The notes beneath the pieces were generated by a model. It had not been told where the DNA came from. It saw only the letters and a list, made by a program, of their open reading frames with translations, and searched no databases. Made by a program: the position numbers and the translations under genes. Shown piece after piece: positions 5,249 through 46,878 of a stretch of 64,000 nucleotides of DNA; positions within the stretch are counted from its first letter, which is position 1, and every line of letters begins with the position of its first letter. Source of the DNA: a virus (lineage: Duplodnaviria > Caudoviricetes); the IMG/VR virus record IMGVR_UViG_3300034061_005646, positions 1,155 to 65,154 of that record. One strand, given 5' to 3'.

Positions 5249-8200
5249 TTAATAACCTCCATAAACTCCAGATGAGCTTTTTGGCTTGTTTTTTTCCAAA
5301 TACTGTAAAGTCATTCTTGATGCCGGTAAAGCTCTTAATGCGTTTTCTGGTATTTTGCTTGATTTTTTTGGACCATATTTACTTTTTTTACTACGCTTCC
5401 AACCATCAGTGCCAAAGCTTTGCAATGTATAGCTTATTGAATTACTTGCTAACTCAACCAACGAAGCCATCCAAGATAAAGCAGGAAGTGTTTTAGATAA
5501 GTTATACACCAAGTTATCTTCTGCTAACACCATTACTTGCTGCATAGTGGATTTAAACAATTCTTTTCCAGACTTATTTCCAATTTTAACTCCTTTGAAT
5601 TGCTTACTCCAAAAGTCTTTTTCATCATCATCACCAATATCAATCATTGCCCACATAGCTAATCCGGTTATAATTCCTCCCCATGTAGCATTAGATATTG
5701 CTTGGTGTTTTTGTTCAGGATTAATTGTTTTTACTCCTGCCAAATGTTTTGCAACCATTCTGTATTTGCCACCTAAAGTAACACCATTCATATTGTACTC
5801 AGCACCAAAACGCGACCAGAAATAATCAGGAGCCCATGATTTAAACTGCATTGCTGCATTTAAATAACTATTTGATAAGTACATTCTTTCAGTAGAATTT
5901 CTAAATTTACCTAAATTGTGTTCTACATAATCAATAGCGCGTTTAACTTTTAGAACTTCTCCTTCTGGCATTCCTAAGATATCTGTTGGCGTTTTATCTC
6001 CAGACAATATTTCAAGCATTCCTTTTACACCACCGGTATAAACATTGTCTTTTTTGTATTGTCTAATTTGTTCTAAATCACCAATAGACAACTGATCTGC
6101 AAGCATCATTAGCCTTGGCATATTTCCAGATATCCAATAAGGCATCATCATAGCTGCTTTTGTTGTTCCGACAATACTAATATCTCCAGTGCTTAAATCT
6201 CTATGGTTAAACATACCAAAAGCCAATGCAACATCTCTAAGCTCTTGAAAATAATACACAGATTTAAGCAAAGCAGGAACCATATTTACAGGACCAGCAT
6301 AGGTGCCCAATAATTTTACCCATGGCTTATTGCTTTCTTTACCCATTCCGTTATAAGCGGACATTGATGTAATTGTTGTTGCTGTTAAATCTACCGCACC
6401 ACCAATCCAAGAAAATCCTAACATAGACAAGCGAGCTGCAGTAACAGAAAAGTCTATTGCTTTAGTAAGAAGTGTTTCATTTGATTGTTCAAACTTCTTA
6501 TTTAAAATACGAGTTTTCATGTCATTAATAAGAAATTTAGCCAATCCCGGATTTTTTTCATTTAGCAATAGCATTTCTCCGGCATAGTAAAGCCCTCTTG
6601 ACTCAGTAAAGGTTTTAGCTTTTTTAACTTCATCAGCATAATTCATGAAGGTTTTAAATAAATCAGGTTCACGTAAATCTTGGCTTGTTCTTATCATTCC
6701 AGGTAATGCAAGAGATTCGGTTCCTGCTCTGGTAGATTCGCCTTTTCTTCTTGTCCAAAACTCTCCACCAATCTTATGTGTCATGGTATAGATGTCTGAA
6801 ATGTTTTTCTCAGATAGTGGTGACTCTCCTATTTTTTCATCTGCAGCAGCTTCTCTCATTATTTCCCTTGCTGTTACATTTTTAAGAACGCGGCCGCTTG
6901 GCAATGTGTAAGATTCAATCTTTCTATCATCTTGGATATTAGTATTATGATATGCTTCATACCACCATGTCATAAACTTATTTAAGGTACCTTTTCCTGT
7001 TTTGTATCGGTTAAGTACACCAGATGGATAATAAGGAATGTAGTAAGAAGCTTGGCCATCAGGTTCACCTAATAACTGAGATCCTTCACCCATTCCACCA
7101 CCATGAAATATACCTGTATTGTTATAGATATAACGACCATACTTAGCATAAAATTCATTCATGTGTTGTAACACGTCAAATTCTGCTTGTGTCATAGTGC
7201 CATTTTGTAATTCAGATATTCCGGCATCCAAAGATTTGAGCTTCTGAACAAGTACGCTTCCGCTTCCCGGTTCAAGTAAGTTGTTTAACAATGAATTGCT
7301 AAAAGAGTTAAACAGTGGAAAACGACCTATAATTTTTCTTCCGCGATAAGCTCTGCCAAACTTTTCTTTAGCTACCTGATCTACAAGCTTTGAATACTTT
7401 AACTTCCATTTGAGCATTTCTCTGTCATTTTGCTCCATAGTGTTCATGATTTCATCTTGTATAAAATCAATTTTATAGTCTGGACTAATCTGATTTAATG
7501 ATGTTGTAATAGAGCTTATTATGCTATTTATCTTACCTTGTTTAGCATTAACTATTTGATTTCTTATAGTGTTTTGCTCTGTCTGCAAAGTAATTGCTTC
7601 AGTTAAAGCTTCAGCAACAACTCTCATGTTATTGGTAAAGCCATTCTGAGCATCGTTTGGCAACATTCTTAATCTTTGAACATGGCCAAGCAATTCAACT
7701 GTATCTGCCTTAGTCAAATCCATTATTTTGCCTGACTGAACAAAGTTTCTAATGTTGTTATAAGCATTTATATATCCGGTTACGGTTGCTTCAAGAGCAT
7801 CATTTTGTAAATCTTTGTCTAGTAAATCATCACGAAGTTGTTGTCTATCTTGCTCAGTAAGGTCTGGTAAGTTTTTTCCAAGCTTTTTCAAAAAGAATGA
7901 GGAGTAAACACCTTCGCCTGATATCGCAAATTCTTCTTGTACTCTTGAAAAGACTGCTTTGCTAAATCCATTTTCAATATGATTCTGAACAATCATTTCT
8001 TTAATCATTGGTCGAAGTGTTTCCATAGAGTATTCTTTGGTCGACATCGAACCTGATATAGCCAAATCATTTTGGAATAGCCTTACAGTTCCAATCTTTT
8101 CACCTTGTTGTTCAAGCAATACTGCTTGTATTCCGGCAGCATATAGTTGCTTTCTTTCGTTAAATGATAAACTATCAAATGCTGGTAAAGCAGCTCCAGA

Positions 8201-11200
8201 CTCATTCTCTCCAATATTAAAAGATGCTGTATTGATGTTCAGTTCTCCATTTGGTCCAACACTAACAATATTGCCATCTACTGCAAGTTCTAATCCAATT
8301 GAGTATGTTGGTCGGTTGGATAAATAAGCATCATACTGTTCATTTTTGATTCTAAGATAGTCAGTTACTTGCTTAGCAAAACCACCTCTGTCAAGTGCAT
8401 CGGCAGCATGATTGCTAATTGAACCATGACCTGCAGTATAAGAAGCCAATATGTTTGACAAATTTGTTACACTGTTACCAGATAGCATTTCTTTGATACC
8501 TCTATTTAACAGCTTATTTGCTTCAGGTATTATACCTTTTACAAAGTCTTGTATATCTTTTCGTGTTTGTCCGGGAATTCTGTTTGCAGCATTTTCATAC
8601 GTTTCAGCATTCATTCCATCAGCTTCCATATTGTCAATAATAGCATTTGCGTTATCAAACGTATACTGACCAACAGTTGTGTATTTGCCCGACTGAAGTG
8701 TTGGTGGTATCAAACTTTCTACAGTAAACAAATCTTCGTTGTATGAAAGAATGTTGGTTATTATCTCATAAAGATTTGCATCTTGTATTGGTTGAGCTGT
8801 GGTAGCAGCGCTTCTCATTTTGAATACTTTAAAGATAAAGTTTCTTATTCTTCCAAATAATGATTTGTCAGATCCAACATAATTTTGAAGCTGAGTGCCT
8901 GTTAAGTCAGGATTGATACGAGCAAAGTATTCTTGCATTTCTCCTGTAGTATCAGACATCATATAAGCAATCATTTCATCCACACGAGCAAAGTTGTTGC
9001 CCGCAAGCTGAGGATCTTCCCAAATGTTTTTTACTTTAGCTTGTACGCCACTTGCGTTTGCCGGTAATGCACTTACTACCTTACCAAGTACATTTGCAAG
9101 GTCAAGTACAGTTTCTTTCAAATCATAATAAGCATCACCCGGTTGAGCTTGCTCAGCTTCATAAATAGCATCTGTAATCCATGCATGGACTGCTTCGTGA
9201 ATAACTACCATTGGAGCATCTAAGCTTTTGGAGTCCCCATTTATGTATATTTCTCCATTATAAAAGAATGCTTTTGTATTTGGGTTAGGATTTTGGGTGC
9301 CGAATGCATTTGCTTCAGCATCTTCAAATTCCTTTTGCGTTAGTACATTGGTTTTAACTTCACCAATAACATCGGTAAATTTCTTAGCTATGTCAGCAAC
9401 AAATGGATTTGCGTTAAGCTGTTCTTGGTATGCTTTAATAACTTGGCTAAGTGTATTAGCTTCAATACCTCTTGATTTAAGGTTTTCGTTGATGCTTTTA
9501 CCTCTCAAGCTTATTGAAGATCCTGTAACATACTTAGAAATATTATTTACGATATCTAATGCAGACAATTTAGTTTCTGACCATGAAGTTCTGTTATTTT
9601 GGTTTGTGCCTGCAACATTACGCATAGTAAACCTTCTGGCTCTTTCTTTGGTTTTTTCTTGCTGACTTGGCTTACTTGTTATTTGGCTGTATTTATTAGT
9701 ATCAACAAACATTTGTTGACCAGGCTGATTCATTGCTGATATTTCCTGAATAGTTTTTAAAGCCTCAATAAGCTTGTTTACGTTTCTTGCAGTAATTGTA
9801 TTGCCGGTTTTGGTTTGTACGCTTGGGCTTCCAATAGATGCTTTCTGAAGCTCTTTAATTGCTAACGTAATAAAGTCTTTATTATTAATAGACTTAACGC
9901 CTTTGATTTCAATGTTTTTAAGGACATCACTCAAAAGATTCATTGTCTCAAGACTATTTCCTGTAATAGCGTGTATTGACTCAAATACAGCACGTTTAAA
10001 ATCAGCAACACTCATATTGTCAAATTGAGAGTTTGCCGGAATAGAAACAATGTCTTGGAATGAGCTCAATGGCATATCGTTGTTTCCTTTTAAAACAGTA
10101 ACATCGCCATTTTCTGAATAGGTTGCTATTGGAACAAACAAATAGTTAGGCGATTTTGCTGTGCCCTTTTTACCGTTTGTATTGATATAACCAGATTGTA
10201 TTCTTTTATAGAGAGTTATTTCACCATTGTTTTCATTTCTATGGTGCACATATTCATGAGCTGATGCCCATTTAATATCCTTTGCATTTCCGGTTTCCAT
10301 GTTAGTAATCTGACTGCCGGTTATTTGATAAGCCATTGTAGGCTCTTTTAGCAATGCATCATTAGCATATTCAAAAAAATTATCTTCATGAGAGTTATTC
10401 CATGCTTTGTTCAAATCTTTAACAACATCTACCTGATAAATTCCAGCATCTTGTCTAATAATACCCAACAAGTTGCGAGATTGTTTATAGCTCATTTGCT
10501 CATTGAAATATTGAATCCACATATACGGATCAGAAATAATTCTTTCGTCAGCAAATGATGTTGGTAATGCTTCATTTTCTAAAGCAGTTATTACCTTATC
10601 CATTACGGTTCCTACTTCGTTTCCATCAGAATCAAGTATTGGATTTCCTAACGCTGCAAAAAGGTTATTTATTCCTTCAGCAATTTCAGCAAGCTGATCA
10701 CTTGTAAAGTCTGTCATTCCACCTTGGCTTAACAAAATGCTTTGATTTGTTGGCTTTTGGTGTCTTGGGCTTGGCTTATTTGGATTGAACGTAGATAAAT
10801 ATGAGGACATTGCCACAAACCATTGTTCTGCAGTAGCTTCACCAAAAGGCTCATTTGTTGCAAGTGCTGTTTCTGCAAATGTTTTAATAGCTTGATCAAT
10901 AAAATTATTTGGTTGAGTGTTTGAAAGCACATCCAAATCATTTGCTTGATTTTCTACAATTGCTTCGTCTTGAATAATATATTCTTGCCCTGTTACAGAA
11001 TTAAACAATGTTCCAGAAGAAGGATCTGCATAAACATCAAATTGATATTCATTTTGGCTTATAACAATTGCCATCATTATTTTAGCTGCTTCAATTGGAT
11101 TGTTTCTTAAAGCAATTTCAAAATCAGCAAATGTTGCATTTTCAGGCAGTTCAATTTTTTGTCCATCAACTTCTTTAAATATACCTGAGTCTTGCTTATA

Positions 11201-14200
11201 AAGCTTTTCATCATATACAGGTAAGCCATTTTCGTTGCGTATTGGCTCTTGATAAACGCTTTGGTATTCTCTAGACTCTAAAAACTTAATAAAGCCATTA
11301 GATGCAATTGCAGATCTATTATCATACAAAGCTGTCAATACCTTATTCATGGCATAGCTGAAGTTTTGTTTTTCTTCTGGTTTCAGAATATTATCAATCT
11401 TCTTTTTAATTTCTTCTCCCATAGCTACACGGCTAAATGCATCTTGAAAACGAGAAACTGCTTTTTGGAATACTTGGCCGGAAGTAGACTTAATAATGTT
11501 TGATACAAACTTATGTATCATTCTGTTAATCTTAGGAGAGTGTGCAGTAATGGATGAACCGATTACAGACATAGCAGTAAAAAACCCTTCAGCTTTAGCA
11601 AACATGATAGGATCTTCTAATATGTGTCTATTTCCGCTTATAACTTCATTAGCATATACCTTGGCAATATATTTTAAGTATGCTGTTGCTCCGTCATAGT
11701 TTAACCCTTTATTAAGCAAAGACTCCATTAAAGGCCCTTTCTTTGTGCTAAGGGCTTGATTAATTTCGTTTAGTTTGGCTATTGCTTCATTATGGTTTGT
11801 GTCAAATTTAATTTGATCTTGTCCGGTAAGAGAAGAGCCCAAAAACCTTGTACCAAAGGACATTGGTGTTCTTAACCACCCTCTTGTATTTTCTGTGGCT
11901 ATTTCTTCGGCAGACTTGCCTTTTTGAATACCATGCAAAACATTATCAACTTCATCATCAGTGGCTAATACACCAATCTTTTCCATTTCAGAAATGAATG
12001 TTCTGCTTTCCTCAATGCTTACAGGAATATCATCAAACTTTTTAGTGTTTAATGACAAAGGATCTATTGCTTTTTGCATATCAAGCAAAACACCAAGAGT
12101 TTTAACAGCTTCTATTTGGGCGATAGTGTAATCATTGTTTGCTCCAACCATTCCCAAATCTGAAGTATAGTCAATATCTTGAACGTGTTTAAGACCATAT
12201 TCTGAATCAATTGCTGAAAGGTTGACAGTATTATTGTCAAGCATTTCTTCATAAGGTGTTCCTGCTATTCTTGAACGAAGGTCAGCTTTAATGTTGTCAA
12301 ATAGCTGATAAGATTGTTGTTCGTATTCATCGGCAATAAGCGAGTTTCTTTCAGCCATTTCGTAGTACTTCTTAATAATTGGCTGATTAATAAAGTTAAC
12401 TGCTACAGACATACCTGTTTCGATACTGTTGTTGGTTAACCCTTTCATCATACCTATACGTGTACCAAGCAAAATAAACGCACTCATATTCATGTCGTTT
12501 ACTCCTGGCTTATTTAAATATCCTTTCTTAACAGCATCCACAAATATCTGAAGAACCTGAGAAGTTGAGTTTTGCAACCTCTTTTGGTTTTCTTTATACA
12601 TTGCGGATATAAAAGTTTCGGCAATTAAGTCTTGCTGTTTTTTGTATTCGTAAGGAAACTGATCATCTTGCTTTTTCTTATCGTTTTGATATTTATCGTT
12701 CAATATCTGACGAGCTCTTTCTTCAGCTATTTGATTCATTTCCTCAATGTTTACAGCATTGCTTTTTAAACCAAATTGCTGTTTCATTTCGTTGGTGACA
12801 AATGGAATACCTTCAAAGGTTGCCATATCAAAATTAATGTTATTAATGCTAAAGTTTACCTGTGTGGCACCTTTTGGTCTAAATTGAACCCTTGCCTTGC
12901 TTGCCATAGATACAGCAAGATTAATAACCCTAATTGATGCAGCAGCCTTTCCAATACCATTTTTACTGTTTTGGATTTCAGCATTACGTTGTATCATGCC
13001 AGAGTTTGACATGGTTGTTTTGGCTTTGCCTGTATATCCCTCTCTCTCAATAACCCTCAAAAAGTCGTTTACATCATTTACCTGCTCTTGCATTTCATTT
13101 CCAAACTTGCCTTCAAACAATTCCATATTTGCTTCGTTCTCAACTGCATCTTGATATGTTTTAAAAACTGCAAGTGCTGTGCTTAGCTTAATTTCTTTGT
13201 TTTTACCTCTGGTATCATTATAGTCATTAACCATATTGATTAACTGATCCGTAGTGGTATTTTCATCAATTGAAAAACCTCTGTCTGTTAAATACCTTAG
13301 TAATTTTTTTGGCTCTTTATGGATTGGGTATATAAAGATACGGTCTCCGTCATTATCCGAATTAGATAGTGAATAAAACTCCAATGGTGGAATAACCATT
13401 GAACCGTTACCGTTTAACGCTTCAGAAAATACAAGTTTTGCTCTTATTTGTGTAGCAGCATTATTGTAAGGAACCTTGATCCCTGTAACATAGATATCTC
13501 CATTTTCATCAGCAAATTCAGCAAAAACATCTTTAAACCTTTCAGGAACTACCATTTCTGATATTCCATTTTCGGTATTGTTAGGATCTATTCTGTACTT
13601 TGGAGTATTATTGGTTTGTCCGTCTATTGTAAGCAATGGAGAAGTAACGGCCATATACATAGACTTCATCTTTGATTTCATAGCTTGCTTAAACTTAGCA
13701 GCCTGTATCTGATAAAGAAGGCCTTCATCATACTCAAAGTTGTATCCAGACTTTATCTTTTGGATAATATTCTCATACATTGATCGCACAGCCTCAGACT
13801 CATTTTTGCTTTGCTTGCGTAAGAAGTCTATAATCTTGTCAGCTTGTAGCTTTTTAGCTAATGGGCTTGCTATTTTTCGGTATTCATTTACCATTTCGGT
13901 AAAGTTTTTAGACTCAAGCGTTGCATTTGCTACTGATGCATTAATCTTGTTAGATACAGCATTTTGTAACTTTTTTAAAGCAGCTACGCTTTTTGGATTT
14001 GAAGAGTCTACATACAATGGAGATTGCTTATTCTTTTGGTCTGGATCTGAAGAAAACCTATTGCTTTGGCTTTCATTGGTTGGAAGCTGAATATAGATAT
14101 CTCCGTAATTTGCTGTATGAACATTTACTTCAGTTGGCAAATCAGCATTACTATCCCATTCTATTGCTGTTCTTTTTTCGGCACCAATTTTTTCCGTAGA

Positions 14201-17200
14201 ATCGTCAAGCAAAGCATCAAGCTTATTTGCTTGCATAAAATCGTACATCTTTTGAAGTATTGGATTAGACGCTGCTAATTCTTTAGTAAGCACTATTTGC
14301 ATCCCTTTGTGTGCAGTAGGAATACCATTTGCGTTTACTGTCGACATAGCATACTTATACTGACCTTCAAAACCCATTTGACCACCGACTGAAGTAGGTA
14401 TAACTTCATTTGCAAGCTCAGATAAGAACATTACCCCATCACCTACCTTAACTTCACCAAATGGTGTAGATATGCTTTCTTTACCACCAAACATATTCTT
14501 ATCCATAATAACATAGTTAAATGGAGCGTCTGCTGCTACTTGTGTACCTGGTGCATTAAACATTTTAGTCCTAACAAATGAATTTTCTTCATCCATGGCC
14601 ATAAAATGCTCTTGGTCTCCACGTAAGTATTGCATATGGTAATAGCGATTAAATTCACTATTAACCACAAACTCTTGCATTAGCGTAGGAATAGAATGGT
14701 TTGTAGCAAGCGCTTGACTTGGAGTATTGGCATTTTTTTTGTACCTGTCTATATCCAACAATGTTCCTATTGTGTTTTCGTTTATAAAATCCAATAAGCC
14801 TTTTGTAACTCCCGGAAGGTCAGCAATGGCTTTTACATCGTTTCCAAAAGATTGGCTATCTCCGGTTTTATAGTAATTCATATATGCTGCCATAACCATG
14901 TTTTTAGCAAGGTCTGCTTCAATAGGATTTTGAGCATTTGCAGGATTATAAAACCTTGAAAGTTGAGCATTTAAGTACTGCTCATACATTTTTTGTGCTT
15001 CTTGGTTAAGTCTGTTTTGGTCAAAGACAACTGTTCTTTTACCTGTTGCATCAGTTTTAATACTGAACATACTTGGTATGTGCTTTGTCATTTGAGCAAC
15101 ACTTAATGGATTACCATTTCTATCTGTTGCATTATCCACAGCAGTTTGAACTTCTGCTTTAAATAAATCAAGTGCGTTATGAGCGCTTGGTTTACCTGTC
15201 ATTATATCCATTCCGGCAAAAGCAACATCATTTGAGAACTGATATTCAATTCCTGACTTACCCATAACAGCATATAACCTTGCACCTGATACTGTATATA
15301 CCCTTGGTGAATCATTTATTTGCTCAATAAAATTAAAGGCATTTGTTCCATAATTTACTGAATTAAGATAATCTCCCATTAAAGTAAGAATAACCATTTC
15401 AGAAGTCAGCTTATCGCTTTCTACTGCATAATTCTTTCCTTTCTTAATGTTAAACTCTGAAATAGCAGATATGCTGTATTTTTTAGCAATGCTGGCTATG
15501 GCAACAAGTGGGTTATTGGCAAGTCGCTTCATTCTTGCTGTTGGACGGCCATTGCTTGTTTTACCACCAAAATGACGAACATCTTGATTATTAAGAACTA
15601 CGTTGTTTTCTTGAGATAGTGCTGAAAGAAACTTATCTTGATTTACTCGTTGTGCTGCTTTTTCAGCAACCCTGACAATGTTTAAGTTTCGGTTTGGCTT
15701 TTCAATAGCTGTTAGGTTTTTACCTAAACGAGAACTCCAATAACGGCTTTCTGATATAACCCCAAATATCTTTTTGTTTTTAGATATGTGTTCGGCAGCA
15801 AAGAAAGAGTAGATAGGATCCATTGAAGCATCACTCTTATTTTCTGTAAGGTTATAATACCTTGTAGCAATTTGTTTCAACGGTTTGATGTTTGGGCTAT
15901 TGTATTGCTCAACAACCTTTATAGCATCATCAATAGACTGTTCCAAAATACCACTACCGGCAACAATAAATCTTAAGCTTTGCAATCCTGCAATAATTTC
16001 TTTCTTATCCCCGGACTTTCTTCCGGCTTTTAATGCTGTTCTTGCATCCTGAAACATAAAGTTAAGACCATAGAGTCCTTTCTTAATCATTTCATTTACT
16101 TGCCGTTTAACATCATTTTTAACATCAGTTTCAATCTTACTTCTATTAGCGACATAAACAGATACCTTTCCACTTTTATCAAATGCAACAGCTCTTTTTT
16201 GAACTACGTTTTGAGCCATTGTAGTACTTAATGATCTCATAGTGTTTGCTGCCAAAAAAGGATTAACAACCCCATTAACTACGGAAGATTCATTTATTTT
16301 ATTAGATAGCTTATAAAGTACTTCGCCAATAGATTCCAATAACATTCTTGTGTTACTGTCTGTTATCGGATTAGTTTTGTTCGAAAGCCTTGCATTAATG
16401 TAATTAACAACTTCAAGGACATTTCTTGGTTGTCCGTTAATTTTGGTAGAAAACAAAGAAGCTATACCTGAAAATATGTATGTTACGTTTGGCGTTTGAG
16501 ACAACCCGGCTTTTTTCATCTTTTGCAGATAAACATAATGTGCAAGTTTACCTACTGCTTCAGCAGCTCTTGTATTTAAGTCTGGACCACCTTTATTAAT
16601 TAAATCAGAAAGGATTTGATCTCCATCAGATATAATCTCAGCAGCATCGGTAATCGCTTCGTCTATGTCTTGTATGGCTTCAATAGCTGAATAGTTTTCA
16701 ATGCCATAGCTTTTTCCAACTTCTTCAATAGCGGTTTTAACAGTGCTTGCAAAAGATTTGCCGTTAATAGCGTGATCTCTTGCAATTTGTTGTGAAGTTT
16801 GAAACAATCCATAAGAACCTTCAGTAGAAGATGCGCCTAATTCAATAAACGAAAGTATGTTGTTTAGTGCTTTGTAAAAAGGCTCCATTTCTCCTTGACC
16901 TTCAGTTGGAAACTCTCCGTTTCTTCTTCTTTCAAGGCTAATTTGCTTACCGTACAGAGAATTGATTTTTTCAATTGCTTTTTCAGCAAGCATTCTATGA
17001 AGCTTTTGAACATCTTTATCAGTAAGATTGCCACCATTTTTGTCATACATTTCCTTATACATCTTTGCATATTCGTTGTATGCACCCTGAATGGCGTTGA
17101 TAGCATTAAATTCTATCATTTCTTCGGTAGTGACTATACCTAATCCACCTTCTACTTGCGGATCAAACTCTTCATCAAATATTGGAGCTTCGTTACCTTC

Positions 17201-20200
17201 TTCCTCATTATACACAGATTCCGCTATTTGAAGCTCAGATAGCGAATTTTCAGAAGGAATTGGATTTGGTTCTGGTTCTGGTTCTTCCTCAAATACATCA
17301 TCTTCAACTGCTATGGCTCTTGGTTGAGCAGTTGGTTGCTTTCCGGCATTTCTTTCGTATTCTCTTAACACCTTTTGAGTGACAGCATTGATTTCTCGTA
17401 CTGTCATGTCAGTATTTTTAGATTCACTTAAAAGATAGCTTGCGATATCAGCTTTTGTAGGGTTTGTATTTCCCTGGGCATCAAAATATTCTTTTGTTTT
17501 CTTTTTTATTTCACTGTCGTTTGGACGTGGTTTTTTACTTGTCTTAGCAACCTTTTCTTTTGACTTAGGAAAAGCTGGGCGCTTGTCTGTATCTTTTACA
17601 TCGGCAACTGTTTTTGGTTGCGCTTTGCCTTGCTTAATAACTTTAGTGTCATTCTTGGCAATACCATTAGTGGCTGATTTAAGGAATTCTTTTACAACCT
17701 TTCTTTCAGAGCTTGTAACATCAAACACACCTTCAGACTCCATTCGGTCCATAATCTCCAAATCGGTTAATCCTTCAGCTTTGTATGACTGAGCAAGTTT
17801 AGCAACATCATCATTTGCCTTAATATTCTCAACACCTTTAATTGGTGCACCTGAATTTTGGGATTTAAGCCTTTTCATTACTTTTTGTGCAGGCTCAATT
17901 TCAACTTCTTCGTTAGCTGCTATTTCTGTATCAGCATCAATTCTTCTTGCAGGTGCTGAAGCATTAGCATTTGTTGTTTTTGAAGTAGTGCTTTTTCCTT
18001 CAGACGGTTTTGCTGTAGCCTGTTCTGCCGCTTTAGCTTTTTGATCTTGTTGATACTTTAGCTCATTTAAACCTATAAGTTGATTATTTACAGTTTGAAG
18101 CTGTTGGTTAGTATATAGCTTTTCATTTTTAAGAACCTGAAGTTCAGACTTTTTTTGTTCTTCAGTTAAAGATGTATCTGCTGATACCGTAGCTATTTGA
18201 GCGTCAAGCTGTGCAGATTTTTCAGACAAGGCTGTTTTTTCAGCATTTACTCTAGTTATAGTTGATGGTATAAGACCATCTTTAACCGATTCCTCTGTTG
18301 GAGTGTTTGCAGTTACTTCAAGCTCTTGTAAAGCAGAAGCGACCTCTTGTGTGAGGCCAATTTTTTTTTGCTCTTTTTGTATTGTCTGAAGCTCTGATAC
18401 CTGTCTTTTAGCAGCATTTTGAACAACCTTATTTTTCTGTTCTTCTTGAGCATTTGTAAATTGAGTATTTACAGATTCTTTTACTGCTGCTTGTGCTATG
18501 TCTGCTTTTTGTTTTTCAAGGGCTGATATTTGATTTTGTACAGCACCAATAATAACCGGGTTGTTTTCTGCTTTTGCTTGTTCTAAAAGAACTTGTTGGT
18601 TTTTAATTTGATCTTGCACTTGAGCATATTGCATAATCTGCTCTTTACTTGCATTAAGCCCAGATGTTTTTAACATTCTGTTTAATTCGTTATATTGATA
18701 AAGCTTATCAATATATGGCTTAACCTGTTCTTCTGTTTTTATTCCGCTTTGCACAAGCTGTCTAAATCCTGCTTCTGCTGAATTTAAATCGCTTGCAAGA
18801 TCATACATATAAGAATCTACTGCTTGCCCTCTTGAACCCAAAGACATTGCAGTAGTTGATAATAATGTAGAAGCCAACATTACACCAAGGTCTCTAATTG
18901 TTGGCAAAACATCTTTGTAAACTTCTTGTCCGGCTGCAAGGTTTGTCATGTATTTGTTGGCTGTTTCTCCAATCATTGCTCCCGTTTCTTCAATTGCTTC
19001 GGCACCAAAACTTGACATTAATATTTTACCGCTTTCGGTAAGCTGTCTCATTTTTCCACCTTTAAGAGCATCAAACCATTTTTTGCCATTAGCTGTATAT
19101 ATCCAACCTTCGTCAAAAATACCTTCACTCATTACGTTAACAAATGCGTCTGCTGTTGCTTTTTTACCTGCAATAGATACAGCTTCTTCAACATTAATTC
19201 CTTTTGTCGTTAAGTTATCTAATTCATCTTCAAATGCTGATTGATATGTAGATGCATAGGTTAAATATGTTGATGGAGACATTACAGTGTTTACCAAATA
19301 GTTTAATGCAAAATTTCCAATTTTTGCTGCTCTTGTACCTGATTGCAAGCCTGAGTATAGTCTTGCTATATCTGCTACTGCTTTAACCCTTGAACCCGCT
19401 CCAATCGTTCCACCTAGCATAATTGGTGCAGACTGTACTGTAGTGCTCCAAACATCTAAGATAAAGTTTTCTGTTGGAGAGTATTTTTCTTGTCTTGCTT
19501 CGGTCCTTCTTTCAATGTTTGTTTTTTCTTCGCCAAGGTATTTATTTAACGGTGGCGCAATAAAAGTGGCCAAGTCTAATCCAAAACTCGTTAAAGCATC
19601 TTCTGCTTCTGTTTTAAAAACTCCACCCGTTGCATCTCTTAATGCTCTGTTTTGCGTTTGAATTTCTTTTTTAAGCCTTTCTTCAGCAACGCGAGGATCG
19701 TTGTTAATTGCTTCATAAATTTTATTGAATTCATTATGAGCAATTGATGCTTGTTCAAGCTTTTTTATTTCTTCAAGTTCTTTACCATAAGGCAAAAGCT
19801 TTTCATTTATTTGCTTTTCAAGCAACGGAAGCTGTTCATTATAATATTTTTCATAAACAGCTTTTTGTTCTGGGCTAATAGGCCCATTGATTAAAGATTC
19901 ATATCGCGCTTTTTCTTTTTCAAGTTCCTGTTTTTGGGTATATAAACTTAAAACTTCACCAAATTTCTTTTCTCCAATTTTGGCAACTGATTGCTGAAAT
20001 ACTTGTTTTTGATATTCAAGTTCTTTTATTCCAATTTCAGTGGCAAGTGCTTGAAACTCTAATCCGGTTTGCCCTGGTCTTCTTTCAAGCTGCTTTTTTC
20101 TTTGATCAATGACATTAAGTTTTTTTTGGTATTCTTCTCCTTCTGTACTTAAATTAACTCCATCATCAAGCGCATTCATTGGCTTTTTAACCATGTTTTT

Positions 20201-20656
20201 GCTTTGAGTGGTAGTTCTATATTCTTCAGCTTCTTGTTCAAGATCTGTAAGATTTTTATAGTTGAGGATTCTATTAGACAATTCCGGATATCTTGCTGCT
20301 CTTTTAGCCAAGGCATAGATTTGCTCACCAGACATAGCTTTTGTATCCCATGACCAAGCAAGTTTATGAATAAGCTCTTTTATTTTTTTTTCTTCTTCCT
20401 CTTGACTTGATGGATCTACAGGCTCAGGTATGCGAGAATTTTTGTTATTAATCAATGCTCCTTGTGGTGTTTGACCAACAGGATTACCCCATTTGCTATT
20501 TACAAGCTCAGGGAAAGAAGATGGCTGATTTAAAGCAGGCTTTTTCTGATTTGGATCACCACTTGATTCAACCGTTTCTAATGCATTTTGAAGAGCACTA
20601 GACTCTTCTTTTGTCTCATTTATAATACCGCCAATAGTTTTTTTTTCGTTTTCCAT
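5249..20656 (-). CDS. Giant virion RNA polymerase polyprotein (crAss-like two-barrel RNAP plus zincin domain)
   Basis: 5135 aa. Beta-like barrel motifs GDG...YK...HK...M...D...S.EKIG (about 14190-14445), beta-prime-like KVP and DNDGD (13343-13357), HEAVH zincin motif (9185-9199) with downstream DEMIAY. Follows the muzzle and ejection genes as in crAss-like phages. Confidence 0.85.
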   Translation of the reverse strand: MENEKKTIGGIINETKEESSALQNALETVESSGDPNQKKPALNQPSSFPELVNSKWGNPVGQTPQGALINNKNSRIPEPVDPSSQEEEEKKIKELIHKLAWSWDTKAMSGEQIYALAKRAARYPELSNRILNYKNLTDLEQEAEEYRTTTQSKNMVKKPMNALDDGVNLSTEGEEYQKKLNVIDQRKKQLERRPGQTGLEFQALATEIGIKELEYQKQVFQQSVAKIGEKKFGEVLSLYTQKQELEKEKARYESLINGPISPEQKAVYEKYYNEQLPLLEKQINEKLLPYGKELEEIKKLEQASIAHNEFNKIYEAINNDPRVAEERLKKEIQTQNRALRDATGGVFKTEAEDALTSFGLDLATFIAPPLNKYLGEEKTNIERRTEARQEKYSPTENFILDVWSTTVQSAPIMLGGTIGAGSRVKAVADIARLYSGLQSGTRAAKIGNFALNYLVNTVMSPSTYLTYASTYQSAFEDELDNLTTKGINVEEAVSIAGKKATADAFVNVMSEGIFDEGWIYTANGKKWFDALKGGKMRQLTESGKILMSSFGAEAIEETGAMIGETANKYMTNLAAGQEVYKDVLPTIRDLGVMLASTLLSTTAMSLGSRGQAVDSYMYDLASDLNSAEAGFRQLVQSGIKTEEQVKPYIDKLYQYNELNRMLKTSGLNASKEQIMQYAQVQDQIKNQQVLLEQAKAENNPVIIGAVQNQISALEKQKADIAQAAVKESVNTQFTNAQEEQKNKVVQNAAKRQVSELQTIQKEQKKIGLTQEVASALQELEVTANTPTEESVKDGLIPSTITRVNAEKTALSEKSAQLDAQIATVSADTSLTEEQKKSELQVLKNEKLYTNQQLQTVNNQLIGLNELKYQQDQKAKAAEQATAKPSEGKSTTSKTTNANASAPARRIDADTEIAANEEVEIEPAQKVMKRLKSQNSGAPIKGVENIKANDDVAKLAQSYKAEGLTDLEIMDRMESEGVFDVTSSERKVVKEFLKSATNGIAKNDTKVIKQGKAQPKTVADVKDTDKRPAFPKSKEKVAKTSKKPRPNDSEIKKKTKEYFDAQGNTNPTKADIASYLLSESKNTDMTVREINAVTQKVLREYERNAGKQPTAQPRAIAVEDDVFEEEPEPEPNPIPSENSLSELQIAESVYNEEEGNEAPIFDEEFDPQVEGGLGIVTTEEMIEFNAINAIQGAYNEYAKMYKEMYDKNGGNLTDKDVQKLHRMLAEKAIEKINSLYGKQISLERRRNGEFPTEGQGEMEPFYKALNNILSFIELGASSTEGSYGLFQTSQQIARDHAINGKSFASTVKTAIEEVGKSYGIENYSAIEAIQDIDEAITDAAEIISDGDQILSDLINKGGPDLNTRAAEAVGKLAHYVYLQKMKKAGLSQTPNVTYIFSGIASLFSTKINGQPRNVLEVVNYINARLSNKTNPITDSNTRMLLESIGEVLYKLSNKINESSVVNGVVNPFLAANTMRSLSTTMAQNVVQKRAVAFDKSGKVSVYVANRSKIETDVKNDVKRQVNEMIKKGLYGLNFMFQDARTALKAGRKSGDKKEIIAGLQSLRFIVAGSGILEQSIDDAIKVVEQYNSPNIKPLKQIATRYYNLTENKSDASMDPIYSFFAAEHISKNKKIFGVISESRYWSSRLGKNLTAIEKPNRNLNIVRVAEKAAQRVNQDKFLSALSQENNVVLNNQDVRHFGGKTSNGRPTARMKRLANNPLVAIASIAKKYSISAISEFNIKKGKNYAVESDKLTSEMVILTLMGDYLNSVNYGTNAFNFIEQINDSPRVYTVSGARLYAVMGKSGIEYQFSNDVAFAGMDIMTGKPSAHNALDLFKAEVQTAVDNATDRNGNPLSVAQMTKHIPSMFSIKTDATGKRTVVFDQNRLNQEAQKMYEQYLNAQLSRFYNPANAQNPIEADLAKNMVMAAYMNYYKTGDSQSFGNDVKAIADLPGVTKGLLDFINENTIGTLLDIDRYKKNANTPSQALATNHSIPTLMQEFVVNSEFNRYYHMQYLRGDQEHFMAMDEENSFVRTKMFNAPGTQVAADAPFNYVIMDKNMFGGKESISTPFGEVKVGDGVMFLSELANEVIPTSVGGQMGFEGQYKYAMSTVNANGIPTAHKGMQIVLTKELAASNPILQKMYDFMQANKLDALLDDSTEKIGAEKRTAIEWDSNADLPTEVNVHTANYGDIYIQLPTNESQSNRFSSDPDQKNKQSPLYVDSSNPKSVAALKKLQNAVSNKINASVANATLESKNFTEMVNEYRKIASPLAKKLQADKIIDFLRKQSKNESEAVRSMYENIIQKIKSGYNFEYDEGLLYQIQAAKFKQAMKSKMKSMYMAVTSPLLTIDGQTNNTPKYRIDPNNTENGISEMVVPERFKDVFAEFADENGDIYVTGIKVPYNNAATQIRAKLVFSEALNGNGSMVIPPLEFYSLSNSDNDGDRIFIYPIHKEPKKLLRYLTDRGFSIDENTTTDQLINMVNDYNDTRGKNKEIKLSTALAVFKTYQDAVENEANMELFEGKFGNEMQEQVNDVNDFLRVIEREGYTGKAKTTMSNSGMIQRNAEIQNSKNGIGKAAASIRVINLAVSMASKARVQFRPKGATQVNFSINNINFDMATFEGIPFVTNEMKQQFGLKSNAVNIEEMNQIAEERARQILNDKYQNDKKKQDDQFPYEYKKQQDLIAETFISAMYKENQKRLQNSTSQVLQIFVDAVKKGYLNKPGVNDMNMSAFILLGTRIGMMKGLTNNSIETGMSVAVNFINQPIIKKYYEMAERNSLIADEYEQQSYQLFDNIKADLRSRIAGTPYEEMLDNNTVNLSAIDSEYGLKHVQDIDYTSDLGMVGANNDYTIAQIEAVKTLGVLLDMQKAIDPLSLNTKKFDDIPVSIEESRTFISEMEKIGVLATDDEVDNVLHGIQKGKSAEEIATENTRGWLRTPMSFGTRFLGSSLTGQDQIKFDTNHNEAIAKLNEINQALSTKKGPLMESLLNKGLNYDGATAYLKYIAKVYANEVISGNRHILEDPIMFAKAEGFFTAMSVIGSSITAHSPKINRMIHKFVSNIIKSTSGQVFQKAVSRFQDAFSRVAMGEEIKKKIDNILKPEEKQNFSYAMNKVLTALYDNRSAIASNGFIKFLESREYQSVYQEPIRNENGLPVYDEKLYKQDSGIFKEVDGQKIELPENATFADFEIALRNNPIEAAKIMMAIVISQNEYQFDVYADPSSGTLFNSVTGQEYIIQDEAIVENQANDLDVLSNTQPNNFIDQAIKTFAETALATNEPFGEATAEQWFVAMSSYLSTFNPNKPSPRHQKPTNQSILLSQGGMTDFTSDQLAEIAEGINNLFAALGNPILDSDGNEVGTVMDKVITALENEALPTSFADERIISDPYMWIQYFNEQMSYKQSRNLLGIIRQDAGIYQVDVVKDLNKAWNNSHEDNFFEYANDALLKEPTMAYQITGSQITNMETGNAKDIKWASAHEYVHHRNENNGEITLYKRIQSGYINTNGKKGTAKSPNYLFVPIATYSENGDVTVLKGNNDMPLSSFQDIVSIPANSQFDNMSVADFKRAVFESIHAITGNSLETMNLLSDVLKNIEIKGVKSINNKDFITLAIKELQKASIGSPSVQTKTGNTITARNVNKLIEALKTIQEISAMNQPGQQMFVDTNKYSQITSKPSQQEKTKERARRFTMRNVAGTNQNNRTSWSETKLSALDIVNNISKYVTGSSISLRGKSINENLKSRGIEANTLSQVIKAYQEQLNANPFVADIAKKFTDVIGEVKTNVLTQKEFEDAEANAFGTQNPNPNTKAFFYNGEIYINGDSKSLDAPMVVIHEAVHAWITDAIYEAEQAQPGDAYYDLKETVLDLANVLGKVVSALPANASGVQAKVKNIWEDPQLAGNNFARVDEMIAYMMSDTTGEMQEYFARINPDLTGTQLQNYVGSDKSLFGRIRNFIFKVFKMRSAATTAQPIQDANLYEIITNILSYNEDLFTVESLIPPTLQSGKYTTVGQYTFDNANAIIDNMEADGMNAETYENAANRIPGQTRKDIQDFVKGIIPEANKLLNRGIKEMLSGNSVTNLSNILASYTAGHGSISNHAADALDRGGFAKQVTDYLRIKNEQYDAYLSNRPTYSIGLELAVDGNIVSVGPNGELNINTASFNIGENESGAALPAFDSLSFNERKQLYAAGIQAVLLEQQGEKIGTVRLFQNDLAISGSMSTKEYSMETLRPMIKEMIVQNHIENGFSKAVFSRVQEEFAISGEGVYSSFFLKKLGKNLPDLTEQDRQQLRDDLLDKDLQNDALEATVTGYINAYNNIRNFVQSGKIMDLTKADTVELLGHVQRLRMLPNDAQNGFTNNMRVVAEALTEAITLQTEQNTIRNQIVNAKQGKINSIISSITTSLNQISPDYKIDFIQDEIMNTMEQNDREMLKWKLKYSKLVDQVAKEKFGRAYRGRKIIGRFPLFNSFSNSLLNNLLEPGSGSVLVQKLKSLDAGISELQNGTMTQAEFDVLQHMNEFYAKYGRYIYNNTGIFHGGGMGEGSQLLGEPDGQASYYIPYYPSGVLNRYKTGKGTLNKFMTWWYEAYHNTNIQDDRKIESYTLPSGRVLKNVTAREIMREAAADEKIGESPLSEKNISDIYTMTHKIGGEFWTRRKGESTRAGTESLALPGMIRTSQDLREPDLFKTFMNYADEVKKAKTFTESRGLYYAGEMLLLNEKNPGLAKFLINDMKTRILNKKFEQSNETLLTKAIDFSVTAARLSMLGFSWIGGAVDLTATTITSMSAYNGMGKESNKPWVKLLGTYAGPVNMVPALLKSVYYFQELRDVALAFGMFNHRDLSTGDISIVGTTKAAMMMPYWISGNMPRLMMLADQLSIGDLEQIRQYKKDNVYTGGVKGMLEILSGDKTPTDILGMPEGEVLKVKRAIDYVEHNLGKFRNSTERMYLSNSYLNAAMQFKSWAPDYFWSRFGAEYNMNGVTLGGKYRMVAKHLAGVKTINPEQKHQAISNATWGGIITGLAMWAMIDIGDDDEKDFWSKQFKGVKIGNKSGKELFKSTMQQVMVLAEDNLVYNLSKTLPALSWMASLVELASNSISYTLQSFGTDGWKRSKKSKYGPKKSSKIPENALRALPASRMTLQYLEKNKPKSSSGVYGGY

Positions 20657-32022: not shown

Positions 32023-33435
32023 TTAGGATTTACGGATCCACTGACCACACGCGTATGGGTTTTTAATAACCACACCCGATTCTGATAGCCATTCAACGTC
32101 AAATCCGTCATTTGAATTTGTAGCCAAAGAGCCCATTTTCAAATTAAAAGGATCTGCCATTCCAGGAATGTATTTCTTAATCAAACCACGGTTTCCTTGA
32201 GCACCTTTACGAACACCAATCATGATATTCGATTCTTTGTCAATTTTACCATAGTTCATAAATACCATGCGGCTTGACTCCAACAAATAACCATTTGAGT
32301 CGCGTTTTGAGTGGATGTTTTCATCATCAAAAATCGCAGCACGAACAATTGATATTGTGTTTGTTCCCACACGATAGCTGGTAAAGTTACCACCCATTTC
32401 GATTGGTTTTCCGTGTACATAAGAGTAACACATGTTTCCGTTATCAACCATAGATGCTTCGAAATACTTATGCCACAAGTTAGCACCACGAGCACCGGTC
32501 ATTACAACCCAATGGTTGTTGTCAAAGTCTGTTGACTTTGTTGCAAGATGCGAAATGTAATCCGCAAGGTTATCGCGGTTGATTTCATCATCATTGTTTA
32601 CTGACCAGTCGTTGATACCTTCGATTTGAGCAAATACTCCGTCACCTGCCCATACAGGTTTGCCTGCATAGTTCACAAATGGTTTTCCGTCAGCAGAAAT
32701 AGTCTTACGACCATACAACCTCCAACGGTCCATATGCTGAAGCATTTGTTTTTCAACTTCGTCCTCAGCTTCGAAATACCACATTGATTGACGGTTTTTC
32801 GTGTTGGTTACCCAAGCTACGTTTTGCAATCCAGAACCAGATACAGTCAAAGAACGTCTGTGGATAGACAAGAAGCTTTTGTATTTATCAGGAAAGCTGA
32901 TAGTACCGAAACCTTCTTTAGATCTTTCCTCGTTCAAGTTTGAGTATACGCTGATTTGCGTTCCAACCGGAATATCCGCATTGGTTACAGTTAGCTGTAA
33001 ACCTGTTGACTCGTCAATGGTAATAATCTCGAATGGGTAAAAATAAGGACCAGAGCCTTGAGCTTCTCCGGTAATGAATGCCATGTAGCCATTTTCAAAC
33101 TTCACAACTTCTTTCTTGTTGAGATAGTTTTCAGCTACCGGCAGTACAAACTTCGAAGTACCAGAACCGCTTTGAATTGCGCCAGCAACAGTCGATGGGC
33201 GTTCGCCACGACCTTTGATGTACCATTCAAGGGTGTTGTTACCCCATTCAGTTTGTTCAGTTTCAAACATTTTAACACGGCCAGTACCTTCTGTGAGGTA
33301 TGTGAAACCGTATTGATCGCGCAAACGAATCATAGCCGCGTAAATTTCGGGCTTTTGTAGCGCATTTTCGGTAAGCGAATTGTCTTTTAGGTTCGCTTTA
33401 CCGTACTTTCCTTTGGATACGTTAAATAGTGCCAT
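32023..33435 (-). CDS. Major capsid protein
   Basis: 470 aa after portal and scaffold; GDGVFAQI, VMTGARG, MGGNFTSY and ES.RMVF motifs of crAss-like MCPs; followed by a terminator. Confidence 0.85.
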   Translation of the reverse strand: MALFNVSKGKYGKANLKDNSLTENALQKPEIYAAMIRLRDQYGFTYLTEGTGRVKMFETEQTEWGNNTLEWYIKGRGERPSTVAGAIQSGSGTSKFVLPVAENYLNKKEVVKFENGYMAFITGEAQGSGPYFYPFEIITIDESTGLQLTVTNADIPVGTQISVYSNLNEERSKEGFGTISFPDKYKSFLSIHRRSLTVSGSGLQNVAWVTNTKNRQSMWYFEAEDEVEKQMLQHMDRWRLYGRKTISADGKPFVNYAGKPVWAGDGVFAQIEGINDWSVNNDDEINRDNLADYISHLATKSTDFDNNHWVVMTGARGANLWHKYFEASMVDNGNMCYSYVHGKPIEMGGNFTSYRVGTNTISIVRAAIFDDENIHSKRDSNGYLLESSRMVFMNYGKIDKESNIMIGVRKGAQGNRGLIKKYIPGMADPFNLKMGSLATNSNDGFDVEWLSESGVVIKNPYACGQWIRKS

Positions 33436-34632: not shown

Positions 34633-34665
34633 CAAATTTATAATTAAAAATTTGATTACAGCAAA
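34633..34665 (-). promoter_or_regulatory. Bacteroidota housekeeping-sigma promoter for scaffold/MCP operon
   Basis: TTTG-N21-TAAATTTG, a full consensus match. Confidence 0.7.
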
Positions 34666-45477: not shown

Positions 45478-45750
45478 ATGTCAAATAAAAATAAGTTAGA
45501 GCAGTATCAAAAAATGTCAGTCAATTGTGAAAATATGAAAATGCATATTTCACAATTAAAGACTCTTTATGAAATCGAAAATCGGAATGATTTTAAAGTT
45601 CTTTTATCTGGAGATGACAGAGTATCTGTGCCTGTAGATTTAGGAATCAAATTAGTTAAAGAAATGATCAAAGAGTCCGAAAACTGGATAAATAAAGAAG
45701 CAAAAGACTTAGAATTTAATAGATCTTTATTAGATAAATTTAAACAATGA
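45478..45750 (+). CDS. Hypothetical protein
   Basis: Part of ORF 45436..45750; start moved past the hairpin to MSNKNK. Confidence 0.6.
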   Translation: MSNKNKLEQYQKMSVNCENMKMHISQLKTLYEIENRNDFKVLLSGDDRVSVPVDLGIKLVKEMIKESENWINKEAKDLEFNRSLLDKFKQ

Positions 45751-46058
45751 AAAAGCTAATCACAAAGTTTGCAGGCATATTGCTTGCTTTTGCAGTATGG
45801 GTAATCAACAATTCCAGAGAAGAAAAGTTAAAACAAACAATCTTATTGGATGATGGAATCTATGAGATTAAGCAAGTTGTAGTTACAAACACCAACCCAT
45901 CAATAGACTCAGGACGGCAAAAGAATAGGATAGCTGATGAAATAAACGAAAGCGTAAGAGGTTATATCAAATATTCAGAAGCTTCTTTTAAGAGTCCTTA
46001 TTCCGGTCCGACTATAACAGGACATACCGGTGAGATACTAGTATTAAAAAAAGTATAA
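45747..46058 (+). CDS. Hypothetical protein with N-terminal hydrophobic segment
   Basis: MKKLITKFAGILLAFAVWVI; ATGA overlap. Confidence 0.65.
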   Translation: MKKLITKFAGILLAFAVWVINNSREEKLKQTILLDDGIYEIKQVVVTNTNPSIDSGRQKNRIADEINESVRGYIKYSEASFKSPYSGPTITGHTGEILVLKKV

Positions 46059-46177
46059 TACTAGGTAATATAAAAATAGAAATATTTTAATTTTCTAGAT
46101 GATTTATCAATCATCTTTTCTCTAAAGACAATGCTCTAAAGAGCATGTAAAACCTTTACCTAGAGTATAGATTGAGA

Positions 46178-46447
46178 GAAAAACTGAAGAGTGAGTGAAT
46201 ACCTTCCCCTTACCCGTAAGGGGTTGGTCACTTGCTTCAGTTACCATTCACCTGTCATATGAGTTGGTCGAATGTACTGCTATGTATGAGGCATATAGGT
46301 CTACATAGTTGAGAGGCTACTTTCAAGGGCTATACCCCCTGTTGATATCCTACGGCTCCCTCTCTTTGTGCCACCGTTGCGCTTGCATCATTCCCTCAGT
46401 AACGCTTTATTTCATCGATCGCTGACGTCTTTAACCCGACCAATCGA
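46178..46447 (-). ncRNA. Candidate structured non-coding RNA (about 270 nt)
   Basis: No ORF of 60 aa or more; consensus promoter upstream; several nested inverted repeats; long 3' hairpin followed by a U tract. Confidence 0.6.
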
Positions 46448-46451
46448 ACAC

Positions 46452-46482
46452 CAAAGGTAAAAATCGATTTGCATTTACCAAA
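46452..46482 (-). promoter_or_regulatory. Bacteroidota consensus promoter firing into the non-coding region
   Basis: TTTG-N19-TACCTTTG. Confidence 0.75.
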
Positions 46483-46499
46483 TCAATAGAATAATTTTA
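46468..46499 (+). promoter_or_regulatory. Overlapping divergent promoter for secreted-protein gene
   Basis: TTTG-N20-TAATTTTA, one mismatch to consensus. Confidence 0.5.
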
Positions 46500-46521
46500 C
46501 ACTATCAATTTGAAAATCAAA

Positions 46522-46878
46522 ATGAAAAAGTTCATCATGTTTTTGTTTGCATTATGCCTGGGTGCATTTGTAAACGAGGTTGCCGCTCAATCCCTAAACT
46601 ACGAGCAAGTCACGACAAATCAAACGGTTAAACCACAGACGATCAATGTTTATCAGAACATTTACGGGGTCCAGAGTCCTTTGCCCTCACAGGTAATCAA
46701 AGAAACTCCCGGATCTAGTCAACTAAACAAATCCTACGGTGTGTATAATACTTATCTTGGATCTCCTGAGCCGTTGCCATCAAAAGTCATACAAAAAAAT
46801 GGTAATAGTTGGGAAGTATACAATACATATTTAGGAGTGCCGGTTGGATTACCAATACAGAGTATATTGCTCGAATAA
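46522..46878 (+). CDS. Secreted protein with three internal repeats
   Basis: Signal peptide MKKFIMFLFALCLGAFVNEVAA-Q; three VY....G....LP...I repeats. Confidence 0.75.
   Translation: MKKFIMFLFALCLGAFVNEVAAQSLNYEQVTTNQTVKPQTINVYQNIYGVQSPLPSQVIKETPGSSQLNKSYGVYNTYLGSPEPLPSKVIQKNGNSWEVYNTYLGVPVGLPIQSILLE

Follow-up and report, generated by a model that had tools for sequence, protein, structure and literature searches.

What is encoded in the 452-bp gap between the plus-strand genes 45747-46058 and 46510-46878 of the virus contig analysed here is the question raised by this locus. The DNA studied is a stretch of 64,000 nucleotides (hereafter the window; positions 1,155 to 65,154 of the IMG/VR virus record IMGVR_UViG_3300034061_005646), and an initial annotation of it, made from the letters alone, had proposed that the gap carries a promoter-driven, highly structured non-coding RNA of about 270 nt on the minus strand, without known relatives. 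The gap itself reads as that annotation described it, with no open reading frame (ORF) of at least 60 aa in 46059-46509 and a GC content of 46.4% in 46180-46459, compared with 26-40% in the flanks. Homology and covariation uphold a phage RNA that is structured, non-coding and encoded by the minus strand, and the region is very probably a genuine RNA gene of the RF02932 lineage, in which it represents a diverged and enlarged relative. The supposed absence of relatives does not survive, since there is a sub-threshold match to RF02932 and a covariance model built from other members of this family (R1, see below) finds the region.

RF02932 (Betaproteobacteria-1 RNA) matches positions 46357-46450 of the minus strand over the whole of the Rfam model (1-120), with a score of 41.2 bits and an E-value of 3.2e-6; when this model alone was run against the 65-kb record the E-value was 6.3e-8. 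The second-best Rfam family for the region reached an E-value of 0.81. Moreover, the features that define the family are present in the window, namely a helix P1 with a 19-nt GGNCGG...ACNNCAG loop, and a helix P2 with a CUGNGGG loop that is followed by GGUGGC. The 3' part of the model (spacer CGAAC, one strand of pseudoknot PK3, and GGGU) is not matched and its last 25 positions align poorly; in the window ~45 nt, comprising one strand of pseudoknot PK2, the hairpin P3a and a spacer, separate helix P3 from the 3' strand of PK3. The RF02932 motif reportedly goes back to Weinberg et al. in 2017. It is not mentioned in the main text of a 2017 paper whose supplement may describe it (PMC5737381), and a full-text literature search on ‘Betaproteobacteria-1’ and ‘RF02932’ returned no functional study.

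In order to collect homologues, the conserved unpaired bases of the RF02932 alignment were turned into a search pattern and public collections were scanned. This gave 31 viral and 97 genome loci, of which 26 and four, respectively, are typical members by inspection; viral loci L006, L007, L008, L018 and L028 are chance matches. When 12 loci were put to Rfam, all ten typical ones scored 82.7-109.8 bits, and L044 and L132 did not pass. Genome locus L044 resembles the window and not the typical RNAs. A second pattern, for this subtype, recovered L132 in a Pedobacter bin, as well as L134 and L135 in a metagenome scan, where the other five of the seven loci are coding-like chance matches. In viral contigs neither the subtype pattern nor an exact 23-mer of the P1 loop had any match. 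The enlarged subtype thus has five members: the window, L044, L132, L134 and L135. Whereas RF02932 has been catalogued from Betaproteobacteria only, the window belongs to the Crassvirales and the subtype relatives come from Bacteroidetes and Pedobacter bins and from metagenome contigs. A blastn search of the region against 50,697 phage records was blank, as was one with the typical member L010, and so no cultured phage with the RNA was found among these records.

A core alignment of 21 distinct typical RNAs (A3), from which exact duplicates and the near-duplicates L030 and L033 had been excluded, was used to build the covariance model R1, with nested helices only and without the window. R1 finds the window at 46333-46453 with 44.4 bits (E-value 2e-9), and L044, L135, L134 and L132 at 31.4-27.4 bits, with nothing else at E ≤ 1 in 81 kb. 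In a control of 100 pattern-fetched loci (748 kb) it returned the four typical genome copies at 102-114 bits together with L044, plus weak matches in L078 (20.5 bits) and L057 (17.5 bits); the other 93 gave nothing at E ≤ 0.1. The L078 match (2258-2376, minus strand; E-value 0.013) lies in a Clostridiaceae bin and could be a chance match or a very distant relative. The claim that the element is neither a transfer RNA (tRNA) nor a transfer-messenger RNA holds, as ARAGORN called no gene in the window and none at the RNA in 15 related loci, where its sole gene is an unrelated tRNA-Met in L005.

The core of the window RNA consists of helices P1, P2 and P3 tied together by the loop-loop pairing PKa and by PK2 and PK3, with the unpaired, purine-rich motifs GGNCGG, CAG, CUGNGGG and GGUGGC invariant. 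The three pseudoknots were derived here from the 21 typical members and were not taken from the Rfam annotation; all three are kept by the window and its subtype with different sequences. In A3, 91.7% of the cells of the six helices are paired, compared with 33-39% when the partners are slid by 1-3 columns, and double changes occur in 24 of 35 pairs; none of 500 shuffles reached the observed values. The same six helices are paired in 96.1% of cells in the alignment of the five subtype RNAs (A1), compared with 31-42% after sliding, with double changes in 17 of 31 pairs. Covariation among homologues, which the initial annotation had named as a check, is therefore present in both sets and spans 26 distinct sequences from unrelated phages. 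The G-U pairs fix the strand, and the RNA is assigned to the minus strand accordingly.

Table 1. Predicted RNA of the window, its helices and its flanking signals (coordinates within strands run in the 5' to 3' direction of the RNA)
Feature	Position	Strand	Basis
Predicted RNA, ~270 nt	46177-46447	-	ends inferred from promoter-like site and U run
Promoter-like site: TTTG (46482-46479), 19 nt, TACCTTTG (46459-46452)	46452-46482	-	
P1: UCGAUUG (46447-46441) with CGAUCGA (46421-46415)	46415-46447	-	Rfam and R1 alignments
PKa, loop-loop pairing: UCAG (46425-46422) with CUGA (46399-46396)	46396-46425	-	
P2: GCGUU (46405-46401) with AGCGC (46383-46379); loop holds conserved ACUGAGGGAA	46379-46405	-	
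PK2: UGAUG in P2 loop (46390-46386) with UAUCA 3' of P3 (46347-46343)	46343-46390	-	
P3: ACGG (46377-46374) with CCGU (46355-46352)	46352-46377	-	Rfam, R1 and subtype alignments
PK3: GAGAGG in P3 loop (46364-46359) with CCUCUC (46316-46311)	46311-46364	-	
P3a, subtype-specific hairpin: CAGGGG/CCCUUG	46324-46341	-	
P4' hairpin: CUAUGUAGA with UCAUACAUAG	46280-46308	-	minimum-energy folds
P5': CAUUCGACC with GGUGAAUG	46245-46274	-	minimum-energy folds
3' hairpin, 60 nt with internal loop (GUGACCAA ... AAGGUAUUCAC), and U run	46179-46242	-	terminator-like; energy fold

The helices are listed in Table 1. The 19-nt loop of P1, GUCGGGUUAAAGACGUCAG, holds the family motifs GGNCGG and ACNNCAG, and within the subtype double changes are seen in seven of nine pairs of P1 and two of five pairs of P2. 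The variable N:N' pair of PKa is CG in ten, AU in five, GU in four and UG in one of the 21 typical RNAs, and is U:A in the window. In PK2 of the five subtype RNAs all five pairs carry double changes and every cell is paired; an equivalent helix holds in the typical RNAs. The invariant GGUGGC lies within P3, at 46375-46370. PK3 is formed by GGAAU/AUUCC in three of the other subtype members and by GAAU/AUUU in L044, and in the typical RNAs by GCUAGU/ACUGGC with CG to UA and GC changes. The initial annotation had described GAGAGG/CCUCUC and a stem in the CTATGTA region as nested stems; both exist, although the former is a pseudoknot, PK3, and not a nested stem.

The window extends this core by the hairpins P3a and P4' and by a 3' domain with a long hairpin and a U run at its end. 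P3a folds in all five subtype RNAs, from differing sequences. At the P4' position, where the window has the complementary strands CUAUGUAG and CAUACAUAG (46308-46300 with 46289-46280), a hairpin is present in three of the five (window, L044 and L134); in L135 it occurs only inside a larger stem, and L132 has none. The CAUUC motif of P5' recurs in the subtype. P5' competes with two other pairings, UUGGUCG (46443-46437) with CGACCAA (46270-46264), and GUGAAU with AUUCAC, the latter being complementary as the initial annotation had claimed. The former had been taken to close a domain of about 165 nt. Its strands are indeed complementary, but it has no clear counterpart by eye in the other four members and overlaps the conserved helix P1 as well as P5', and it may be an alternative specific to the window. 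Direct repeats in the window RNA (GACCAAC twice, CUCUCAA twice) are at about chance level by a rough estimate and were dropped.

A protein-coding explanation of these sequences was also considered. ORFs of only 30-41 aa overlap the RNA region, and in four of the five subtype RNAs every frame contains 2-10 stops. L134 has one open antisense frame of 73 codons, which the other members lack, so that no frame is open in all five and a conserved small ORF, raised earlier as an alternative, was not found. Codon periodicity is likewise absent from the subtype (27, 27 and 31 variable columns by position).

Natural variation, drawn from contigs at low depth (4-9), is used as supporting evidence only. 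A contig of a related strain from a second study (run X2) spans 45900-46700 and has 13 listed differences in 45941-46065, which comprises the neighbouring gene and its 3' flank. The same contig has no listed difference in 46066-46640, 575 nt that span the RNA, the promoter-like site and the start of the next gene, and one at 46641. This contrast could reflect a recombination boundary as well as selection. In a third run only one of the listed changes falls within the RNA, T to C at 46361 (plus strand); in the RNA strand of PK3 it is A to G and converts an A-U pair to G-U, with the pairing kept.

Analysis of the typical members shows that the catalogued model is incomplete. Typical RF02932 RNAs (loci L004-L034, L040, L052, L084 and L116; alignment A2) are 210-250 nt long, about twice the 120-nt model, and conservation in A2 runs ~100 nt past it. 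This extra 3' part comprises a P5 hairpin with the loop GGCUCCG, then UAAGG, a variable hairpin, GGAUGGCUGAG and YCACC. P5 folds in isolation in 15 of the 21 typical RNAs, with 12 different stems. RNAalifold pairs the invariant GGUGG with YCACC, although this pairing never covaries. The 3' domain of the window has the same order of elements with little sequence likeness, and may be homologous to that part. In addition, the 6-9 nt on the 3' side of CUCCG in the P5 loop appear a second time, almost unchanged, behind the 3' CACC of the typical RNAs (segments X and X', A2 columns ~158-176 and 246-264). The sequence of this segment varies between phages, and the two copies thus co-vary by identity and not by complementarity. 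A shared word of at least 6 nt is found in 16 of the 21 typical RNAs; for every one of them, a word that long is shared by no more than 5% of random 18-mers drawn from its own locus. No consistent partner strand complementary to X/X' was found in the typical RNAs. X and X' could be two strands that compete for one partner, or a guide-and-target pair. A corresponding repeat could not be demonstrated in the window.

The ends of the window RNA are suggested by its flanking signals. The TTTG-N19-TACCTTTG sequence reported as a promoter is present, and ends ~5 nt before P1. Bacteroidetes promoters recognised by the primary sigma factor have the consensus TTTG at -33 and TAnnTTTG at -7, with a spacer of 19-21 nt. 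The 60-nt hairpin and U tract are also where they had been placed, with complementary arms AACUGAAG (46242-46235) and CUUCAGUU (46189-46182) and five U at 46183-46179. Hairpins with an internal loop that resemble this one are found in L135, L132 and L044. Further small hairpins, in 46131-46146 (minus strand) and 46060-46110, lie 3' of the terminal hairpin, and one of them (AUGCUCUUUAGAGCAU) was called terminator-like.

The typical copies that were fetched are phage-borne or prophage-like, and lie at module boundaries, with capsid, terminase, HNH or replication genes as neighbours. An HNH gene and then a capsid gene come after the RNA in L017, and the genes for the small and large terminase subunits in L014. 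L013 and L019 have a DUF968 gene before the RNA and ParB-like, helicase and Toprim genes after it. L044 lies in a contig with Crass_capsid, where a 349-aa gene directly follows the RNA and is itself followed by the capsid gene, all on the same strand; in L132 it is upstream of an antirepressor gene. Small HNH endonuclease genes adjoin the 3' edge of the RNA in L009 (3109-3420, minus strand) and L017 (8762-9235, minus strand). These were found in only two clades and therefore look like secondary homing-endonuclease insertions beside a conserved RNA gene. In the window both flanking genes are on the opposite strand and no co-oriented ORF lies downstream.

The best overall explanation, although one that we hold tentatively, is that the window carries a separate non-coding RNA gene of the RF02932 lineage which yields a free-standing, trans-acting RNA. 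The promoter-like site just before P1, the hairpin with its U run and the opposed neighbours all support a free-standing unit. Host RNA polymerase would start at the TTTG/TACCTTTG site and stop at the 3' hairpin, and the product would be a stable, free RNA acting in trans, with a rigid pseudoknotted core from which the invariant loop bases would be accessible to a partner. Such a partner would be conserved from Betaproteobacteria to Bacteroidota, and conservation across hosts this distant would point either to a small ligand or to a protein or RNA that belongs to the core machinery of the host. That the window RNA itself is free-standing, acts in trans and binds a partner is a conceivable reading of these features, put forward with rather more reserve still.

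Several observations weigh against this explanation. The RF02932 score lies below the gathering score of 49.4 bits, no Rfam family matches anywhere in the window at gathering level, and the subtype is known from five sequences. The promoter motif has four matches in the window where 3.3 are expected, a count attained by 41 of 100 shuffles. A consensus terminator scan does not call the 3' hairpin, the base of which is A-U rich; two of the five U can pair, which would leave three U after the stem. Folding-energy z-scores of -1.67 (minus strand) and -2.05 (plus strand) are weak and not strand-specific. It is thus homology and covariation, and not promoter frequency or folding energy, that set the feature apart from chance. 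All six of the listed sequencing runs that hold the stretch are DNA, labelled as lake water or unspecified metagenomes. Turning to the other copies, most of the loci for which downstream sequence is available have an ORF on the same strand that begins no more than ~180 nt from the RNA, the window being the exception, and in the HNH-linked clades this ORF starts within ~15 nt of the conserved 3' CACC. Typical copies are flanked by terminator-like hairpins (upstream in L012, downstream in L013), and no sigma-70-like promoter was seen at those examined.

These closely spaced downstream ORFs are what would be expected of the main rival, an unlikely but serious one, in which the RNA is a cis-acting leader, that is, a riboswitch- or attenuator-like conditional terminator. 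Its core would sense a metabolite, nucleotide messenger or protein, and formation of the 3' hairpin would depend on that signal; transcripts that read through in the window would cross the plus-strand early genes in antisense (~46058 to 40609) towards the minus-strand structural genes that start at 39907, and in other phages the operon directly downstream would be gated. Loci of the L017, L014, L044 and L013/L019 types do have the RNA at operon heads, and in the window the RNA and the late genes share a strand, but the long co-oriented gene blocks of phages make shared orientation weak evidence, and ~6 kb without a co-oriented gene follow the window copy. The genes downstream of the family are also heterogeneous and functionally unrelated, unlike those of known riboswitches. 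Alternative pairings of the kind used by such leaders can be drawn, with GGUGAAUG pairing either with CAUUC (P5') or with AUUCAC inside the 3' hairpin, and UUGGUCG either within P1 or with CGACCAA; in the window, however, these are single-sequence observations. The 6-9 nt of the P5 loop repeated in the typical 3' tail might resemble competing expression-platform strands, yet the complementary strand is the one that was not found. Finally, Rfam classes RF02932 as a small RNA (sRNA) gene. A wider proposal, which we consider distinctly improbable, is that the whole family is a new phage-borne class of sensor or catalytic RNA, with a triple-pseudoknot core that would recognise a signal found in very different hosts and a variable 3' domain that would control transcription or processing at the heads of operons; the window copy would be a conditional terminator releasing antisense read-through over the early genes towards the late genes.

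A compact, multiply pseudoknotted core with invariant unpaired purines would also suit a self-cleaving or other ribozyme that excises itself from polycistronic phage transcripts. Self-excision would explain typical copies that lack a recognisable promoter and sit between a terminator and a gene or between a gene and a terminator, and the conserved YCACC at the 3' edge can pair with GGUGG. Nevertheless, the absence of covariation in that pairing, the absence of any match to an Rfam ribozyme family over 45900-46700 even at E ≤ 10, the lack of an inferable cleavage site, and a promoter-like site at the 5' end that would make processing of the window copy needless, together leave self-processing with little probability. 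An RNA linked to replication, either a primer or an origin-activating transcript, is very unlikely: ParB-like, helicase and Toprim genes come immediately after several typical copies, the window copy is in the early region upstream of DnaB-like helicase genes, and X/X' would let an RNA loop match the DNA just downstream, but other copies head capsid or terminase modules, no iterons or AT-rich origin features were looked for or noted, and nothing links the fold to DNA synthesis. Least credible of all is that there is no functional RNA here, and that the region is a small protein gene, a site that acts at the level of DNA, or the remnant of a decayed element. The weak folding energies, the chance frequency of the promoter motif and the overlapping short ORFs would fit such a view; it is contradicted by strand-specific covariation over the 26 sequences, by the lack of a conserved frame, and by the related strain that has no differences here beside a variable gene.

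The free-standing RNA can be compared with several known systems. It shares with RF02932 the motifs of P1, P2 and P3, an NCAG:CUGN' loop-loop pairing, two further pseudoknots in the same order, and carriage by phages. It differs in the additional P3a and P4', in PK3 (GAGAGG/CCUCUC instead of GCUAGU/ACUGGC), in a 3' domain with a terminator-like hairpin, in its own promoter-like site and in its Bacteroidota, crAss-like setting. Riboswitch and attenuator leaders resemble the window RNA in having a folded core followed by a hairpin and U run, with overlapping alternative pairings, and differ from it in that no gene lies downstream here and the genes downstream of the family have no coherent function. 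The GOLLD and ROOL RNAs are much larger than the window RNA. In the parts of two reports that bear on them, they are described as large, ornate RNAs, often in phages or prophages, of unknown function and not tied to one neighbouring gene (PMC5737381; 10.1101/2024.12.08.627333). On that description the window RNA is like them in being phage-associated, elaborately folded, non-coding and not bound to a single neighbouring gene, and unlike them in that there is no sequence or model match and no tRNA gene nearby in the window. A precedent in the Crassvirales is given by phage phi14:2, for which the relevant part of one preprint describes abundant non-coding transcripts from long intergenic stretches of the early region (bioRxiv 10.1101/2020.03.07.982082). 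As described there, these transcripts run with the early genes, whereas the window RNA runs against them. They were rejected as homologues, R1 having no match in the phi14:2 genome, whether this was scanned whole or its first 9 kb alone.

What is new here is that a known orphan RNA family has an enlarged variant, in a host and phage group new to the family. An orphan motif thereby moves beyond one bacterial class, and now looks like a phage-borne RNA common to phages of Betaproteobacteria and Bacteroidota, including Crassvirales; this spread narrows the possible partners to something common to both hosts or to the phage lifestyle. The catalogued Rfam model covers only about half of the RNA, and the three-pseudoknot core provides a concrete fold for probing and structure work. 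If the RNA were a sensor or an enzyme, it would constitute a new functional class. A candidate non-coding RNA gene is also added to the Crassvirales, in which we know of no non-coding RNA with an assigned function, the early transcripts of phi14:2 being the only other case considered here.

The source, a virus contig of 65 kb in IMG/VR, is placed in the Crassvirales by a gene for a Crassvirus major capsid protein at 32023-33435 (minus strand; E-value 7.8e-34), together with matches to the crAss muzzle protein (crAss_MUZ), a P22-like portal and a DnaB-like helicase. Identity of the capsid protein to its counterparts in named crAss-like phages does not exceed 25%. The two proteins that flank the RNA have relatives at one distant locus and at none, respectively, in viral contigs, and a 634-aa protein of the structural module has none there; with relatives so scarce, synteny could not be used. 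The product of the diverging gene 46522-46878 (plus strand) has 118 aa, an N-terminus resembling a signal peptide or that of a lipoprotein (MKKFIMFLFALC...) and no Pfam or PHROG match. Homology between it and the product of the gene downstream of L135 was tested, and none was found. On the other side of the RNA, several runs have short contigs stacked at 46087-46123; this stacking and the many mismatches in the contigs suggest that a short repeat common to other genomes lies there. In the structural half, a 5135-aa ORF at 5249-20656 (minus strand) could, by position and size, encode the giant virion RNA polymerase-like protein of crAss-like phages. A TTTG-N21-TAnnTTTG match at 34633-34665 (minus strand) is a possible late promoter, as it lies immediately before a 379-aa gene that is followed by the capsid gene, and the homologous RNA of L044 occupies the position equivalent to this motif.

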